A stretch of DNA of 64,000 bases, taken from a virus. Its lineage: Duplodnaviria; Caudoviricetes. The stretch is taken from IMG/VR virus record IMGVR_UViG_3300036984_000039, positions 32,001 to 96,000 of that record; one strand, written 5' to 3'. The notes under the pieces were generated by a model. That model saw nothing but the letters and a program-made list of their open reading frames with translations, was not told the DNA's origin and searched no databases. A program made the translations under genes and the position numbers. Positions 1,714 to 61,616 of the stretch are shown here, piece after piece (the first letter of the stretch is position 1; each line of letters begins with the position of its first letter).

Positions 1714-2073
1714 TCATATTCCGAGTAGCGCATTACGCTCGGCTTCCGGCAGAAACATCGGACGATACCATGCGCGCGGCATGTTGGCGTCAATCCAGGC
1801 CAGGGCTGTAGTGCTAACCATGAGCCAAACAACGGCCAACATGGATGACGGGTATCCTTCGATATCATCCGTCCAGCGAACCATTGCCTTGTTGGCGGAA
1901 TCGCCTTTGACGGCGGAAAGCACGGCATCAGCCTGTGATTCAAACATGCCGTTTGCGACCAGTTCTTTCCTTGCCCACTGCTCAAATGTCACTTTGATCT
2001 CCTTTCCTGCGAGCGGGTGATCGGCCCTTCCGCCCGATGAGGTACGGCGCTCAATCACCCGCCCAATGGTCAT
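1714..2073 (-). CDS. Hypothetical phage protein
   Basis: ORF coupled to the upstream gene by ATGA, with a GAGGA RBS. Confidence 0.6.
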   Translation of the reverse strand: MTIGRVIERRTSSGGRADHPLAGKEIKVTFEQWARKELVANGMFESQADAVLSAVKGDSANKAMVRWTDDIEGYPSSMLAVVWLMVSTTALAWIDANMPRAWYRPMFLPEAERNALLGI

Positions 2074-2240
2074 TCCTCGTCGCCGTCTTCGTCGGCGTAT
2101 TCCGCGATTTCCTTGCAGACCTCGATCAGCCGCTTGCGCGCCCACGCCTCGTCTTCGCTCAAATCGTCGTCCATGTTGTCGCGGCAGTCCCGAAGGTCTT
2201 CCAACGTGTTCTGAAACCTGCAATAGCTCATGTTCGCCAT
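2070..2240 (-). CDS. Small conserved phage protein (MANMSYCRFQNTLEDL)
   Basis: Strong RBS AAGGAGGGGTG. The N-terminal motif is one I recognise from phage hypothetical proteins. Confidence 0.7.
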   Translation of the reverse strand: MANMSYCRFQNTLEDLRDCRDNMDDDLSEDEAWARKRLIEVCKEIAEYADEDGDEE

Positions 2241-2546
2241 CTCACCCCTCCTTGTCGATCCGCACGTAAAACGGGCGGCTGGTCGGTCTCTGAAACACCG
2301 ATGCGTTGTGCCCGCGACCTTACTTGATCGGTCGCATTCATCACTTTTGAACAAGTTGGATCGGCAGCCAGCAACGCCAAGAAACTGGATCAATCCTTTG
2401 CTATCAGGTGCGCGCCCGTGTCGGATTTCTACCGCAGCAGCCGCCGCGCTTCAGGCATTTATGCGGGCGGGTTGTACGGGATGCCACTCCCGGCCAGGTC
2501 GCTTCATTCCCCGGCTGACCGACGCGCACCTGATAGAAAAGGATTC

Positions 2547-3127
2547 GATTTAGGCTCACGACACTTGCTCCGAGGTCTGCCTGTTAGCACACCTGCGCTT
2601 GACTCGTCCACATGGGTACTATGCCTACGCAGCCGGGTTCCATATCGGTGTCGGCTTGCCTACGATTATCATTCTTACTTATCCCTCATCACGCCGCGCC
2701 TCACGCTACCGAGTAGTCCTACGGTAACGGTCTGCTTGGGCTGTACCTGTCCGGGTTGCTATCTGCGGCTGCCTCACGGCATGACGCTCTTACCAGTCCG
2801 TCAACTCGCTGGCGTGTTAGCCCGGTGTCAGCGTTTGAACCTGCGCCACGGTTGCCCGTGCTTCGTGTCCACGCGCCTCCTGTTCATTACAGGGTATCAC
2901 CCGCGCTCACCGATCTGCTCTCGCCAAGTCACCGATCCGCCAGAACGGGTCGGGTGGCAAGTTTTGCGATTCGCGCTTTGTGATTCGAGAACTATGTGGA
3001 AGCGCCTGCAAACTGGTGGCTACGAGGTTCCGGTAAGAGGCCATCTGCTGTCATCCTTGCGGTGGCCCCCGCCATTCCTCTCGCCTGCGATGCGCTTCGG
3101 TTGTCAAGGTGCCTGCTACCCACCTAC
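2547..3127 (-). ncRNA. Large structured ncRNA, ROOL-like candidate
   Basis: About 580 nt with no credible ORF, directly downstream of a TTGACA-17-TATACT promoter. It has a boxA-like GCACCTTGACAAC and GNRA-capped hairpins (GCC-GTGA-GGC, CACGG-GCAA-CCGTG). Its motif order resembles ROOL from memory. Confidence 0.55.
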
Positions 3128-3133
3128 AAACAC

Positions 3134-3162
3134 AGTATAGCACAACCCGCTATGTTTGTCAA
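3134..3162 (-). promoter_or_regulatory. Sigma70-type promoter (early family, copy 1)
   Basis: TTGACA-N17-TATACT with extended TG. Confidence 0.85.
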
Positions 3163-3205
3163 GTGGGTAAACAGGGCAATTTCAGACCAATTTCAACGAG
3201 CTTGT

Positions 3206-3493
3206 TCAAAACTCTACGCCTTCTTCGGCCATGCGGGCGCGGCGTAGCTTGGTGTACTCGGCGCGCCCTTCGATGGTCATGCCGGACATCATGCGCCCGC
3301 GACAGGTGCGCCGATAGTAGTCCTCTCCTTCAAGCGGCTCGGTTTCGATGGCTTTGCACGCCGCGATGTAGGCGAGATATTCTTGCGTCCATGCCGCGCT
3401 AGGCCAAAATCCCGACCCGGTGTGCATCAACACAGGTTGCCGTGTACCCCTGACGTGTTGCTTCTGCCAACGCATGGCCTGGGCGTAACTCAC
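3206..3493 (-). CDS. Hypothetical protein
   Basis: GTG start overlapping the upstream stop (GTGA), RBS GGAAGGA. Confidence 0.6.
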   Translation of the reverse strand: MSYAQAMRWQKQHVRGTRQPVLMHTGSGFWPSAAWTQEYLAYIAACKAIETEPLEGEDYYRRTCRGRMMSGMTIEGRAEYTKLRRARMAEEGVEF

Positions 3494-3570
3494 GCTTGTC
3501 CTTCCTTCGGCGGTTTGGGCGTCATGGCCGCCAGGGTCTCCTTGAGCGACCGCTTCGCCCAATCGAGGAC

Positions 3571-4923
3571 TTGACGTACTCCCACGGCTAAAGCTCGTGG
3601 GATTCTGGGGTCAAACAGCAAGCGCCGGGCTTACCGGTCTTACCTCACCTAACCCAAGAGAGCACGCCCGCTCTCCTTCACTACGAATGTTCTTAGCTGC
3701 ATTATGGTCGCGGTCATGGATCGCGCCGCAGTTGGCGCATGTCCAGCGCCGTTCGGTCAAGCGCAACCCCTGATACAGCCATCCGCAGTCCGAGCATGTC
3801 TTGCTCGACGGATAGAAGCGATCCACCAGTGCCACGAGCTTGCCTTTGGTGCTGGCGACATAGCTTAGAATGCCCATGAATTCCGACCGGGCCAGATCGC
3901 TCACTTTGCGACCCCACAACCGAACCATGCCGCGCATGTTTAGATCCTCAAAGTACAGGTAATCGTACTGGTCGGTGAGCATGTGTGCCAGCTTGAAGAA
4001 CCAGTCCCGGCGCTGGTTGACTACTCGTTGGTGAATGCGTGCGACGCTCAGCTTGGCCTTACGCCAACCATGCGACCCTTTTACCTTGCGTGCTAAGTTC
4101 TGTTGCGCCAACTTCAACTCAGACATGACCTTCTGATAGTACAGCGGTGACTCGATCACCAGTCCCATGTCCGTGGTGATAAACGCTTTCAGCCCAAAAT
4201 CGAAACCTGCGCTGTTACCCGACATGATTCGGTTGCTTTGGTCTTCCGACATTTCTACCACGAAATAGAGCCAGAGCGCGCCCAAGTTATCGCGCTTGAT
4301 CGTCAACGTCTTGACCTCGGCCGGAATGTCACGGCTCTTGCTGTACTTATAAACCCGACCGCGAATCTTGATTCGATTGCCATCCAGCAACTTCCAACTG
4401 TTATGCTTGAGCGTGAAGCTACTGTATTTCTTGACCTTTTTAAAGCCGGGTGGTGAAGCCTTGACGCCCACTTTCAGGTTGTGAAAGAATAGCTTGTACG
4501 ACCGCTCAATGCGTTCCGCGATGCCTTGAATTGCTTGGGCATCAACTTCGTTCCAAAACGCGTAGCGTGGTCTCTGTTTGAGTTTGGCAATATGCTTCTG
4601 CAAATCGTACAAATTCAAATGTTTACCAGTCAAACGATAGTAGCGCCGATGTAAAGCAATTTCGTGGTTCCAGATAATACCAGCAATGTCGATCTGCTGG
4701 TTCAAGAACCGATTCCGCTTCGCCTTGTAGAGTTTGAACTTGTACGTTTTTATCATCGCGTTGCTCGGTTAAATGACAAGCCGCCCGGTGAAGCCATTCT
4801 TGTCGAGGGAATGTCTGTCGGACGGCCTGTGGTTAGCCCATTACTGGACGATCACCCTATTCAGCTATGGCCTCTTACTACATTCCCTCGACAAGACTTA
4901 TTCTAACACGTCTCGCTCTTTTT
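3571..4923 (-). mobile_element. Non-autonomous IS200/IS605 (IS1341-type) element carrying tnpB
   Basis: Preceded by TTGAC. Ends in the hairpin CCCACGAGCTTTAGCCGTGGGAGTACG followed by TCAA. Its removal restores an open reading frame. Confidence 0.85.
3611..4756 (-). CDS. tnpB: RNA-guided endonuclease TnpB (intact)
   Basis: N-terminal KTYKFKLY, RuvC GFDFG / FEDL / DRDHNAA, zinc finger CSDC..CANC. Confidence 0.95.
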   Translation of the reverse strand: MIKTYKFKLYKAKRNRFLNQQIDIAGIIWNHEIALHRRYYRLTGKHLNLYDLQKHIAKLKQRPRYAFWNEVDAQAIQGIAERIERSYKLFFHNLKVGVKASPPGFKKVKKYSSFTLKHNSWKLLDGNRIKIRGRVYKYSKSRDIPAEVKTLTIKRDNLGALWLYFVVEMSEDQSNRIMSGNSAGFDFGLKAFITTDMGLVIESPLYYQKVMSELKLAQQNLARKVKGSHGWRKAKLSVARIHQRVVNQRRDWFFKLAHMLTDQYDYLYFEDLNMRGMVRLWGRKVSDLARSEFMGILSYVASTKGKLVALVDRFYPSSKTCSDCGWLYQGLRLTERRWTCANCGAIHDRDHNAAKNIRSEGERACSLGLGEVRPVSPALAV

Positions 4924-5186
4924 GTCAATGCCTTTTCCCTTCATGTGTGCAAACAACTGCGCAGTACTTTCACGTATTGCTAGTTTGGCCCAAGCTTCGA
5001 CGTACTGCTGCGCGCCCGCGATGGCAAGCGTAATCATGGCCTGGGCCAGCGTAGACCACGGCGCGGGACTGTCCGACTGAGCCGCGATAAACTGTAGCAT
5101 CGGCACGGCGGCGGCGGGCAGTTCGGCTCTATGCTCGCTGTCGCACCCTTCCAGGCCGATGATCCTCACGGTGATGGTTGCCACGG

Positions 5187-8000: not shown

Positions 8001-8029
8001 AGTATAGCAGAACTCGCTTGCTTTGTCAA
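8001..8029 (-). promoter_or_regulatory. Sigma70-type promoter (early family, copy 2)
   Basis: TTGACA-N17-TATACT. Confidence 0.85.
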
Positions 8030-57827: not shown

Positions 57828-60800
57828 ATGAGCGCGGGCTTATTCGATCTGCTTGGCCTTGGCCTGGGTCTGGGCGTACCACAGGTAGTCGGCTCATTCA
57901 CCGCCGATGCGATCCTGCAACGGGCGCGTAGTGGCTCGGTGATCGCCAATGCAATCATTGCATCGACACAGACTGGAAGCATCGCAGGTTCGGCGGTCGT
58001 ACTCGGTACTGTCTCAAGCAGCATCACCACTAATGCTGTCCTGGCAAAGAGTCAAGCGGACAGCATCATGGCCTCCGCGGTTATTGTCAAGGCGGGCAGC
58101 GGCTCGGTAAGCGCCGCCGCCGTTGTCGGCAAGGCGCAGGCGGGTAGTCTCACAAGTGCGGCCATTATCCAAAGCGCTATCTCAAGCAGCATTAGCGCCA
58201 ATGCCGTACTGGTAAAGAGTCAAGCCGATAGCTTTACAGCCGACGCGATTATCATTAAGGCGGGCAGCGGATCGGTCACCACCGACGCGATTATCGTCAA
58301 GGGTCAATCATCCAGCGTAACCGCAAGCGCCACGATACTCGCGAGCAAAACTTCCAGTGTCACGGCTGATGCCGTACTCCAAACGAGCAGGGCCGCGAGT
58401 ATCACGGCTGACGCCATTCTCCTGCACGGTCAAACAGATAGCGTAACCGCCGAAGCGGTCATCAGCAAGACCAATTCCGCCAGCTTTACAGGCGCTGCGA
58501 TCCTGTTGCGGGAGCGCAGCGATTCAATCACTGCCGACGCGGTTTTGGTCAAGGCGCAAGCCGCCAGTATAGTCGCAAGCGCCACGATACTCGCGGGCAA
58601 AGCCGCCAGCATCACGGCTGATGCCGTACTTCTCCGAGAACGGACAGGTAGCGTCACAGCAGATGCGGTTATCAGCAAGGCCCAGTCATCCAGTGTCACC
58701 GGCGACGCGATTCTACTTCGGGAGCGCAGCGGCTCGGTAACCACCAATGCCGTTTTGGTCAAGGCACAAGCGGCGAACTTTACCGCTTCTGCAATCATCC
58801 AACAATCTGGCAGCGCCCAAACCGCAGCGGATGCCGTAATCATCAAGGCGCAAGCCACCGGCATCGCAGCTAACGCGATCATCCTGCGGGCGGCAACAAC
58901 TAGCATCGCGGCAGATGCGGTACTGAGCAAAGCACAAGCCGCCAGCATCACAGCGGATGCGATTATCATTCTCGGTCGGACTGGTTTGCTGACTGGCGCA
59001 GCCGTAATCGTGCGGGCGCAGGCAGCGGCCCTTACCGCCGACGCGACAATTCAGAACGCTCTCGCAAGCAGCATCACGGCCAACGCGGTTATCCAGCGCG
59101 CTCGTGCAGGCACCTTTACAACCGATGCCATTCTCCAGGCATTACGCACCGGCAGCGTCTCCGCCAACGCGACGATTTTCAAGGCGCAGGTTCAAAGCGT
59201 TACAGCGGATGCCTACATCGTCACTATAGGCGCACAGGCTATCTCTGCTGACGCAGTAATCCAGCAGGCGCGTGCTTCCAGCGTTACCGTCGATGCCTAC
59301 CTCGTTTGGACGCGGGCGGCCAGTCTGACCACTGACGCAATTTTGCTCAAGGCGTCAGCCGGAAGCATCACCGGCGCGGCGATCATCCAACAGGGTAGGG
59401 CGTCAAGCATCACGGCGAATGCCACGCTAAAATCCGTAAGCGCAAACAGCATCACGGCGGATGCGATTATCATTGGCGCTCAGGCAGCCGCGTTTAGCGC
59501 CGACGCCATAATCCTGCTACTCCGGTCGAGTAGCCTTACCGCCAATGCTATTGTTCAGAGTCGCGCAGACCGTGCCATAAGCGCGGACGGCATCATTCAA
59601 CAGGCGCGTTCGACCAGCATCACGGCGTCCGCCGTTATTGACAAGGCTGGTTCCGGGTCGCTGATCGCCGATGCCGTGATACAAGGCGCACAAACTGGCG
59701 CTGTAACCGCGGATGCCGTACTTCGCAGGGAACAGACAGGCAGCATCACCGCCGATGCCGTAATCGGACAATCTCGCTCAGGCACCTTTACAACCGACGC
59801 CATTCTCCAGGCATTGCGCAGCGGCAGCACCACCGCCGACGCGACAATCGTCAAGGCGCAGGCCCAAAGCCTTACGGCGGACGCCTATATAGTCACCATA
59901 GGCGCACAGGCCATCTCCGCCGATGCCGTAATCCAACAGGCGCGGACTTCCAGCGTCACCGCTGACGCCTATATCATTTGGACAAGCGCGGCCAGTCTAA
60001 CCGCGGATGCAGTCTTGCTCAAGGCGCATGTCGGGGCCATTACCGGCGCGGCGGTCATTCAACGGAGTCGGGCGTCCAGCATCACGGCTGACGCCACACT
60101 AAAGTCTGTAAGCGCAAGTAGTGTCACGGCGAACGCCGTTATCAGCGAAGGTCAGGCAACGGCGCTAACCGCCGATGCCATAATCCTGCTACTCCGTTCG
60201 GGTGGCGTCACTACCGATGCCGTTGTTCAGGGCCGCGTAGACCGCGCCATAAGCGCGGATAGTATCATTCAGCGGACGGTATCACTCAGTGTCACGGCGA
60301 ACGCCGTTATCAGCAAGGCGGGTTCCGGGGCGCTGACTACCGACGCCGTAATCGGTCAATCACGGGCCAGTTCCTTTACAACCGACGCAATCCTGCTCAG
60401 GCAGCGTAGCGGTCAAGCCAGCATTGACGCCACGATCTTCCGCGCACAGAGCGGCAGCGTCACCGCCGATGCGTATATCAGCACGGCGGGCTGGCAAACA
60501 ATCACCGCCAACGCGACGATTCAGCGCGAGCGCACAGGCACAGTCACCGCGGACGCGTTTATCATTACGGCGCAAGCGGGGAGCCTGACAGCCGATGCCG
60601 TGGTGCAGGTCGGGCGTACTGCCTCGGTCAGCGCGAACGCTGTTATCCAGAATTCACGTACCGGACAGATCACGGCGCAAGCGATAATCCAGGCGGCGCG
60701 CAGTTCCAGCGTCGGCATGGATGCCGTCATTCGCCAGGCGCAGAGCGGCTCCTTCACAAGCGACGCGGTTCTAACGGCAACACGCACCGGGCAAGTCACG

Positions 60801-61616
60801 GCGCAAGCAATCATCGTCCAAGCGCGCGCCGATAGTATCACGGCGAACGCCATTCTCAGCAGGACGCGCACCGGCAGCGTCACAACCGACGCCGTCCTGC
60901 TACGGACGCAGGCCAGCACCTTTACAGCCGACGCCTATATCATCACGACTGGCGGGCAGGCTATCACCGCCGCCGCCGTCATCTTACGCACACAAACGGG
61001 CAGCGTCACGGCGGGCGCGTTCATCGTTACGCCACGCACGGGCAGCGTCACCGCCGACGCCCTGGTGTTGGTCGGGCGTACGGGTAGCGTTACCGCTCAG
61101 GCAGCCGTACAACAAGCCAATACCCGAAGCATCGTGGCACAGGCGGCAATCCAGGCGGTGCGCGCCAGTAGCGTCACGGCGAACGCCCTGCTGCAACAAA
61201 CACGGGCCGGGAGCGTCACCGCCGCCGCCTTCCTACAAACGCCGCGTAGCGCCAGCATCACGGCACAGGCCGTGGTCAAGACGACTCAGGCGGGAACAAT
61301 CAGCGCCGCGGCCTGCATCGCACAGCCGCGGGCGAGCACTCTTAGCGCAAACGCCTACATCGTCTACTCCGGCGAGCGCGTGTTGCTGGCTGATGCGACG
61401 ATCTTGCGGGAACAAACCGCAAGTCTGACGGCTCAAGCGGTCATCAAGGCGGCACGCAGCGGCAGCATCACGGCGGGTGCCTACATTCTGAGCGGCATCA
61501 TACCGGAATGTCGCCTGTTCGACATCGAAGCGGAAGAACGCTTCTTTGACATAACTGAAGAACGCTTCTTTGACGTTGAGGCGGAAGACCGCTTCTTCGA
61601 CATAGACTGCGGCTAG
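57828..61616 (+). CDS. 1262-aa protein of tandem 14-aa repeats (xSITADAVIxxxRx)
   Basis: Strict 42-nt periodicity over about 85 units; C-terminal RFFDxxxE repeats. Confidence 0.85.
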   Translation: MSAGLFDLLGLGLGLGVPQVVGSFTADAILQRARSGSVIANAIIASTQTGSIAGSAVVLGTVSSSITTNAVLAKSQADSIMASAVIVKAGSGSVSAAAVVGKAQAGSLTSAAIIQSAISSSISANAVLVKSQADSFTADAIIIKAGSGSVTTDAIIVKGQSSSVTASATILASKTSSVTADAVLQTSRAASITADAILLHGQTDSVTAEAVISKTNSASFTGAAILLRERSDSITADAVLVKAQAASIVASATILAGKAASITADAVLLRERTGSVTADAVISKAQSSSVTGDAILLRERSGSVTTNAVLVKAQAANFTASAIIQQSGSAQTAADAVIIKAQATGIAANAIILRAATTSIAADAVLSKAQAASITADAIIILGRTGLLTGAAVIVRAQAAALTADATIQNALASSITANAVIQRARAGTFTTDAILQALRTGSVSANATIFKAQVQSVTADAYIVTIGAQAISADAVIQQARASSVTVDAYLVWTRAASLTTDAILLKASAGSITGAAIIQQGRASSITANATLKSVSANSITADAIIIGAQAAAFSADAIILLLRSSSLTANAIVQSRADRAISADGIIQQARSTSITASAVIDKAGSGSLIADAVIQGAQTGAVTADAVLRREQTGSITADAVIGQSRSGTFTTDAILQALRSGSTTADATIVKAQAQSLTADAYIVTIGAQAISADAVIQQARTSSVTADAYIIWTSAASLTADAVLLKAHVGAITGAAVIQRSRASSITADATLKSVSASSVTANAVISEGQATALTADAIILLLRSGGVTTDAVVQGRVDRAISADSIIQRTVSLSVTANAVISKAGSGALTTDAVIGQSRASSFTTDAILLRQRSGQASIDATIFRAQSGSVTADAYISTAGWQTITANATIQRERTGTVTADAFIITAQAGSLTADAVVQVGRTASVSANAVIQNSRTGQITAQAIIQAARSSSVGMDAVIRQAQSGSFTSDAVLTATRTGQVTAQAIIVQARADSITANAILSRTRTGSVTTDAVLLRTQASTFTADAYIITTGGQAITAAAVILRTQTGSVTAGAFIVTPRTGSVTADALVLVGRTGSVTAQAAVQQANTRSIVAQAAIQAVRASSVTANALLQQTRAGSVTAAAFLQTPRSASITAQAVVKTTQAGTISAAACIAQPRASTLSANAYIVYSGERVLLADATILREQTASLTAQAVIKAARSGSITAGAYILSGIIPECRLFDIEAEERFFDITEERFFDVEAEDRFFDIDCG

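Follow-up and report, generated by a model that had tools for sequence, protein, structure and literature searches.

A predicted promoter-driven, non-coding and locally structured RNA of no described family in a lineage of sediment phages

GOLLD and ROOL belong to a small number of large structured RNAs that are borne by phages, and the functions of both are unknown despite the solution of their structures by cryo-EM (PMC12286853). ROOL is an untranslated phage RNA of several hundred nucleotides that contains multistem junctions (PMC5737381, PMC12286853), while GOLLD has a 3′ region that is conserved and a 5′ region that is variable (PMC12286853).

We have analysed a phage locus that had been predicted to encode a large ROOL-like RNA. 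The window, i.e. the whole 64,000-nt stretch of DNA that was analysed, comprises bases 32001-96000 of a 107,546-bp IMG/VR virus record that is rated complete; positions are numbered from the first base of the window. The record encodes a large terminase, a portal, a head protease, an FtsK-like protein and a ligase. Every gene around the untranslated stretch is on the minus strand, where a TnpB gene is followed in the 5′ to 3′ direction by orf95, a promoter, the untranslated stretch, orf56 and a second TnpB gene:

4756-3611, minus strand: TnpB gene, upstream of orf95
3206-3490, minus strand: orf95, the upstream gene, with its true start at GTG 3490 and 95 codons (MSYAQAM...)
3134-3162, minus strand: sigma-70-type promoter, TTGACA-17-TATACT with a TG extended -10, 11 of 12 consensus matches
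2241-2388, minus strand: orf56-proximal part of the leader, which contains a Shine-Dalgarno sequence (AAGGAGG) and has an unremarkable fold (z = -1.1)
2070-2240, minus strand: orf56, the first gene downstream of the RNA, encoding a small acidic protein of family phrog_8760
1985-909, minus strand: second TnpB gene, downstream of orf56

The 118-codon frame of orf95 (3206-3562) is over-extended; its homologs and the called protein P0002 begin at the GTG at 3490, which is preceded by GGAAGGA. The changes within orf95 in relatives are mostly synonymous and at the third position, as expected of a gene. The orf56 protein begins MANMSYCRFQNTLEDL... and is very acidic at its C-terminus. Its family, phrog_8760, is widespread in phages, with 188 relatives of orf56 confirmed by tblastn in IMG/VR.

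ROOL is family RF03087 of Rfam, with a gathering score of 99.1 bits. When the window was searched by cmscan against all 4227 families of Rfam 15, no match reaching a gathering score was found, ROOL included. At E ≤ 10 the ROOL model matched neither the 1601 nt around the stretch nor the exact 586-nt span, and it found nothing in the 107.5-kb phage genome, as was also the case for 14 control genomes. The exact span was matched at E ≤ 10 by none of GOLLD, OLE, HEARO and raiA, nor by any other of the 4227 families. The search with the ROOL, GOLLD and OLE models that had been proposed with the original prediction was thus negative for all three. Only two matches were returned at E ≤ 10 from the 1601 nt, both inside the 3′ module described below. 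These were c4-a1b1 at 16.7 bits (cut-off 46.7, E = 0.34) and isrK at 12.9 bits (cut-off 50, E = 9.1), and are at chance level.

The resemblance had been drawn on the basis of an ordered series of short strings, and a boxA-like string had been noted near the 5′ end. Reading the sequence, we find on the minus strand:

3112-3100, minus strand: boxA-like string GCACCTTGACAAC
2889-2882, minus strand: TAATGAAC
2805-2790, minus strand: GTTGACGGACTGGTAA
2751-2741, minus strand: GACAGGTACAG
2556-2547, minus strand: terminal string AGCCTAAATC

These strings are present in the predicted order, but the place assigned to ATGAACC (2643-2636) reads ATGGAACC, and the covariance model lends no support to the likeness to ROOL that the strings were held to show. 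The boxA-like string is where it was said to be, but it agrees with the consensus of E. coli in 9 of 12 positions, and the window contains 28 such matches where 29.6 are expected.

In common with ROOL this is an untranslated RNA of several hundred nucleotides in a phage, with several predicted multistem junctions, but it differs in having no covariance-model match, no neighbouring tRNA gene, no supported pseudoknot, and a distribution restricted to one shallow lineage. It is phage-borne like GOLLD and is longer than 800 nt if the whole untranslated stretch is counted, and its strict core and variable 5′ domain recall the conserved 3′ and variable 5′ regions of that RNA; it differs in lacking an Rfam match and a tRNA neighbourhood, and GOLLD is moreover associated with expression during lysis and with self-assembly. 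The phage setting of ROOL and GOLLD is found here (terminase, portal, protease), but not the tRNA-adjacent setting. Neither the window nor the 107.5-kb genome as a whole contains a tRNA or tmRNA gene, and hence the usual position of these RNAs beside tRNA genes is absent. The RNA is not ROOL and belongs to no described family, and should not be given the name ROOL. The set of large phage RNAs would be broadened by an unrelated member from an environmental phage of high GC content.

Other RNA classes were considered and rejected. Strings GGUAAGAGCG, GGAGCAAG and GAACCCGGCU, which are reminiscent of the M1 RNA of E. coli, occur in an order that differs from that of RNase P, and the RNase P RNA model (RF00010) has no match in the genome at E ≤ 10, while the same search was positive in 11 of the 14 control genomes. 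For a group II intron, retron or diversity-generating element there is no group II match in the span and no RVT_1 (reverse transcriptase) domain anywhere in the phage genome; the sole match to RF01998 in the genome scores 9.5 bits and lies away from the span.

The untranslated stretch extends from about 3127 to the start of orf56 at 2240, a distance of 887 nt, and contains 10-15 stop codons in each minus-strand frame. The prediction of about 890 nt without a credible open reading frame is therefore borne out. The sole long frame is on the plus strand (2418-3140, 240 codons). The GC content at its three codon positions is flat (0.589, 0.577 and 0.602), its translation resembles junk and it has no Pfam hit. 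A search of 5.8 billion clustered and 1.84 billion representative proteins revealed no relatives beyond its own lineage, and there were no further relatives among shorter proteins. The only related 'proteins' are three from the same lineage, P0005, P0006 and P0007, which are translations of this spurious frame from three metagenome contigs of about 1 kb (P0005 and P0007 from ENA, of 1084 and 1027 nt, and P0006 from JGI). Base-3 periodicity is absent in every frame of the stretch. Moreover the relatives have indels whose lengths are not divisible by three, and the lineages differ by frameshifts in the 5′ domain, so a conserved reading frame on either strand is unlikely. A decayed protein gene, or a decayed tnpB, was rejected, since no frame resembles any phage protein (the best score, to TnpB, is 25.8 bits). 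In composition the RNA is rich in purines (56.8%) and poor in U (16.7%).

The promoter at 3162-3134 on the minus strand, with its 11 of 12 matches to the sigma-70 consensus plus the TG, is in keeping with the strong promoter that had been claimed. Judged by its position, transcription would begin near 3127. There are about 32 near-consensus sites (at least 10 of 12 matches) genome-wide, for example at 8029, 10562, 12138, 22249, 24413 and 41220, compared with 4.8 in shuffled sequence. Most of the sites are on the minus strand, and the extended form CCCACTTGACAAAC...TGCTATACT, i.e. CCCACTTGACAAAC-N-TGCTATACT, is common to many of them, so that the promoter at 3162-3134 is a regular member of the phage set. 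The sites have the look of strong promoters dedicated to early transcription. What distinguishes the present member is the length of untranslated sequence that follows. For the other promoters the distance from the predicted start to the nearest frame of at least 50 codons is 0-225 nt, whereas here the first real gene lies 887 nt away. In a relative from sequencing run X3 both promoter hexamers are unchanged, while the spacer has one substitution and one deletion; P0006 and P0007, viewed as amino acid sequence, are consistent with a 17-nt spacer. No second promoter was detected between the RNA and orf56, and there are no terminator-like sites in 1800-4000, and hence none between the RNA and orf56.

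The distance from the likely start at about 3127 to the stem of the module at 2547 is 580 nt, both ends being placed from the sequence. Folding energies were compared with those of 100 dinucleotide shuffles (40 for the whole 578-nt span). The whole span folds no better than its shuffles (z = -1.1), and five coding controls gave z-scores between -0.5 and +1.2. Unusual folding energy is limited to three parts (3098-2999, 2990-2682 and 2549-2389), and the RNA can be divided as follows:

2999-3098, minus strand: Domain 1 (D1), a 100-nt irregular hairpin closed by GAAGCGC/GCGCUUC, pair probabilities 0.8-0.99
2682-2990, minus strand: Domain 2 (D2), a 309-nt multibranch closed by helices 2990-2966 / 2704-2682 (probabilities 0.8-0.9)
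2830-2877, minus strand: variable arm, with helices GGCG/CGCU (2877-2874 / 2833-2830) and 2871-2867 / 2840-2836
2860-2847, minus strand: hairpin CACGG-GCAA-CCGUG, carried by the helices of the variable arm
2732-2830, minus strand: invariant core of about 100 nt, including the GACUGGUAAGAG loop hairpin (2803-2782)
2781-2770, minus strand: hairpin UGCC-GUGA-GGCA within the invariant core
2705-2728, minus strand: hairpin GUUACCG / CGGUAGC, pair probability 0.97
2879-2872 and 2702-2695, minus strand: 8-nt direct repeats GAGGCGCG, bounding a 177-nt segment that is missing in P0006
2550-2681, minus strand: purine-rich 3′ part (purine 0.60), with no significant predicted structure (z = -1.0)
2389-2549, minus strand: 3′ module of 160 nt, consisting of a four-way junction of about 100 nt and the 28-nt inverted repeat (89% complementary) that closes it (z = -5.4)

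D1 has similar z-scores on the two strands (-2.8 on the minus strand, -2.5 on the plus strand), while that of D2 is lower on the minus strand (-2.5, compared with -1.1 on the plus strand). The minimum-free-energy folds contain two or three junctions, as calculated by a method that is blind to pseudoknots. A pseudoknot-type pairing of 3037-3028 with the core loop at 2796-2787 (10 bp) was rejected; it is a match of a size expected by chance and is not kept in the relatives. The many GNRA-capped stems that had been reported reduce to two GNRA hairpins with at least three pairs (2860-2847 and 2781-2770). Shuffled sequences contain a mean of 1.8 such hairpins with a 3-pair stem and 0.6 with a 4-pair stem, and 54 of 500 shuffles reach two with four pairs.

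The helices of the 3′ module are of 16 and 8 bp, with pair probabilities of 0.89-0.96, and its 28-nt inverted repeat is the best long inverted repeat of high identity in the window. The predicted stem makes the module a candidate RNase III processing site and a candidate 3′ boundary of the large RNA. Leaders and intercistronic stems that are processed by RNase III occur in phage early transcripts, such as the T7 early region and the lambda N leader. As in those systems, an untranslated segment of an early-type transcript is separated from the following gene by a near-perfect stem (16 + 8 bp), but the present stem has a branched insert of about 100 nt within it and is a candidate cleavage site only. 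The module also contains a hairpin (2492-2477, loop GUGGCA) that bears some likeness to the c4/a1b1 antisense RNAs of P1 and P7 (CL00128), to which the weak c4-a1b1 and isrK matches correspond, but those scores are at chance level and there is no complementary target in the phage genome.

We note that a similar architecture to that of 2389-2549 is found elsewhere in this phage. At 4798-4896, downstream of a promoter at 4928 and within a TnpB leader, a perfect 17-bp stem surrounds 65 nt.

The element has been found only in one small, shallow lineage of sediment phages, with few near relatives. The same phage is present in two sediment metagenome runs and one freshwater run. Run X3 contains a variant of roughly 91-94% identity over orf95, the promoter, the 5′ part of the RNA and orf56. 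A 252-nt contig from X22, a freshwater-sediment metatranscriptome library, aligns to 2732-2964 with 19 substitutions and 10 indel bases and is almost wholly D2 of a relative; while its origin is an RNA library it is possibly contaminating DNA, and does not prove transcription. The comparison of sequencing runs left out X4-X7, X9-X21, X23 and X24, whose word shares were small and which have no bearing on habitat or distribution, and parts of the locus that are uncovered in a run do not signify absence. P0005-P0007 were compared solely at the amino acid level of the spurious frame, so that DNA changes in these are deduced from codon changes.

Outside this lineage the searches were uniformly negative. 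A blastn search with the region revealed no relatives among 50,697 phage records or among 72,556 plasmids. A 21-mer of the core has no matches in IMG/VR and a 20-mer none in the GTDB genomes. A two-anchor pattern of the core gave one chance match in IMG/VR (L094), which has no other similarity, and a slightly longer version gave none in a single scan of metagenome contigs. Degenerate patterns taken from an alignment of the spurious frame (A2) found nothing in IMG/VR or the GTDB genomes, and the five nearest terminase relatives (28-51% identity) have chance matches only to the RNA.

Nor does the RNA accompany its neighbouring genes. By blastn and nhmmer the 80 loci of orf56 homologs that were kept (GC content 27% to 65%) and eight loci of orf95 homologs have no similarity to it. 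In 79 of the orf56-homolog loci the gap upstream of the gene has a median of 37 nt and a maximum of 483, and none of these gaps resembles the RNA. The eight orf95 homologs, 46-60% identical and located in other phage contigs, are followed by packed small genes and no RNA. Since the RNA is absent beside the homologs of both flanking genes, we deduce that the stretch entered the lineage as a unit with its own promoter.

Within the phage genome the only DNA similarity to the stretch is short. Nucleotides 3097-3116, in the first 20-30 nt of the predicted RNA, have a same-sense match of 19-20 nt (95%) to 59106-59125 and 59779-59797, which are two repeats in a 1262-codon gene (57828-61616). This is probably due to chance (E = 0.02-0.08). 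An antisense regulator of another phage gene was rejected, as this match is of the same sense and there is no complementary target genome-wide.

Conservation within the lineage is markedly uneven. The X22 relative has no differences over the 99 nt of 2732-2830, while the adjoining 47 nt (2831-2877) contain 11 substitutions and 10 indel bases; further 5′ of the variable arm the differences fall to about 6%. The core residues within the spurious frame are identical in P0005 and P0007, and no part is better conserved in P0005-P0007 than D2 as a whole (94% when judged by that frame). By contrast D1 is frameshifted or divergent in these relatives, and the part 2550-2681 has substitutions and a 12-nt length difference. 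At the tip of the variable arm the 5-bp GCAA hairpin is replaced in X22 by an 8-bp stem with a GAAA loop, so the GNRA loop is kept. Identical blocks beside divergent ones could arise by phage mosaicism, but a variable hairpin of 47 nt is not on the usual scale of mosaic exchange.

A number of changes preserve pairing. In the closing helix of the arm GGCG/CGCU becomes AUCG/CGAU in X22, by one two-sided change and one one-sided change (G-U to A-U). In the former G2876-C2831 becomes U-A, with both sides changed and the pairing kept. The pairwise consensus fold contains four compensatory changes, one consistent and none broken among 62 pairs, where the structure was predicted from the same sequences that were used for testing the pairing. 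In the hairpin 2728-2705 the amino acid changes indicate that C2724-G2709 becomes U-A in P0007 and A2725-U2708 becomes G-U in P0005. There are therefore two clear two-sided pair changes (2876-2831 and 2724-2709), and up to four, among a few very close relatives; with relatives so few and so close the covariation rests on two to four pairs, in part deduced from amino acid sequence. Single-sided changes in the predicted helices are divided about evenly between those giving G-U (kept) and those giving A-C (broken) on the minus strand, and so carry no signal of structure or strand. In the X3 relative neither terminal pair of the helix 2961-2920 is retained.

In P0006 exactly 177 nt, bounded by the two copies of GAGGCGCG, are missing, while its near-twin P0005 retains the segment. 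The junction in P0006 (...VTP|RLLF..., on a JGI contig of 986 nt) is as expected of a deletion between the repeats. The missing segment consists of the variable arm, the whole core and the hairpin 2728-2705. Either the core is dispensable, therefore, or the P0006 genome is defective.

The locus thus has a strong promoter, no coding signal, parts with local fold stability and a distinctive pattern of conservation, and these support an RNA, unusual in this phage, that is promoter-driven, non-coding and locally structured. The reading that we prefer, with a probability of about 0.45 and so a little short of an even chance, is that this is a lineage-specific structured non-coding RNA of no described family that is probably cut from the orf56 transcript. 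Several lines of evidence favour it: the uneven conservation, the exchange of one hairpin for another, the two-sided changes and the z-scores of D1, D2 and the module; a promoter typical of the phage that is followed by an 887-nt leader instead of 0-225 nt, with no coding signal; the 252-nt contig from an RNA library that is almost wholly D2; and the acquisition of the element as a unit. It is weakened by the insignificant z-score of the whole span (-1.1), by the similarity of D1 on both strands, by the absence of the core from P0006, by the lack of a terminator before orf56, by the broken helix ends in X3 and by possible mosaicism.

On this preferred reading the stretch would be transcribed by host RNA polymerase, probably early in infection, and host RNase III would cut the 28-nt inverted-repeat stem of the module (2549-2389), so that about 580 nt of stable RNA would be freed from the message of orf56. 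The freed RNA might then act in trans through its invariant core, in host takeover or in counter-defence. A protein or RNA of the host or the phage would bind to the core in a sequence-specific manner, with the variable peripheral helices acting as a scaffold only. It would be an abundant stand-alone structured RNA, like ROOL and GOLLD in manner and unrelated to both. That it represents a new class of large stand-alone phage RNAs, with a core on a variable scaffold, excised by RNase III and acting in trans on a host or defence factor, is possible but doubtful. The relatives are too few to define a new RNA family. Given the shallow lineage and the modest evidence for structure, the present value of the element is as a lead. 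The clear promoter, the sharply defined core and the natural 177-nt deletion of that core would provide a simple experimental handle, in the comparison of wild type with deletion.

The most serious competitor to a stand-alone RNA is that the orf56 operon has a long 5′ leader acting in cis. The structured RNA, either remaining joined to the message or processed from it, would set the stability, translation or read-through of the message and have no function in trans. With no terminator-like site or second promoter intervening, orf56 must be read from the promoter at 3162 or from further upstream; the 28-nt inverted repeat could serve as a message stabilizer or a processing site, and the stem-closed module at 4798-4896 lies behind promoter 4928 in another leader of the phage. 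Yet the homologs of orf56 have short upstream gaps with no similar RNA, so the gene does not need such a leader, and its Shine-Dalgarno sequence is not confidently sequestered (pair probability 0.23). At 887 nt, with the core 450 nt from the start codon, this would moreover be far beyond known leaders. We consider a purely cis-acting role unlikely, while giving it appreciable weight.

It is rather less than likely, too, that the stretch is a non-functional remnant, i.e. a spacer or the fossil of an acquired segment that lies behind a promoter by chance. A hypervariable arm of 47 nt set in invariant flanks, the replacement of hairpin by hairpin and the two-sided changes are unlike neutral decay, there is no similarity to phage proteins (TnpB at 25.8 bits being the best) or to other DNA of the genome, and it is rare for a phage genome so tightly packed to retain 0.9 kb of junk after a strong promoter. 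The identical block would nevertheless be explained by recent common ancestry or mosaic exchange, with the hairpins kept by chance, and the confinement to one shallow lineage, the natural variant P0006 that lacks the core, the single-sided helix changes with no bias toward keeping pairs and the insignificant overall z-score are all in keeping with a remnant. Taken together we judge this improbable.

Small proteins encoded by one or more minus-strand frames are very unlikely. Three candidates exist, one of which has a plausible ribosome-binding site:

3123-2992, minus strand: 43 codons
3044-2907, minus strand: 45 codons, with AAGGA 9 nt upstream of the ATG
2559-2404, minus strand: 51 codons

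Frames of such size are expected by chance in 887 nt, however, and two of these contain single-base indels in the relatives (a deletion at 3090, and a change of frame near 2997-3010 between the window and P0005-P0007), in addition to the lack of base-3 periodicity in all frames.

A primer or R-loop RNA for a transcription-activated replication origin, comparable to ColE1 RNA II or the T4 oriF and oriG transcripts, is more improbable again. A long, untranslated, structured and purine-rich (56.8%) transcript from a strong promoter does resemble the preprimer RNAs, but no inflection of GC skew occurs at the locus, no iterons, AT-rich unwinding region or antisense promoter are seen, and the core can be deleted in nature (P0006). 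A divergent GC-rich member of ROOL, GOLLD or OLE is scarcely credible, since only the size range and the phage setting fit, while the phage has no tRNA genes and neither RF03087 nor any other of the 4227 Rfam families matches the span at E ≤ 10.

Finally we note the nature of the genes that surround the element. The two TnpB genes, each with OrfB_IS605 and Cas12f1-like zinc-ribbon domains, flank the block of orf95, RNA and orf56 and share its strand. A 43-nt contig from X22 matches, over 34 nt and with four differences, the right end (3572-3605) of the TnpB element at 3611-4756. The word depth of this contig is 81.6, compared with 3.3 and 4.3 for the other X22 contigs that were compared, and the contig possibly represents an abundant guide RNA (omega RNA) from a related element.
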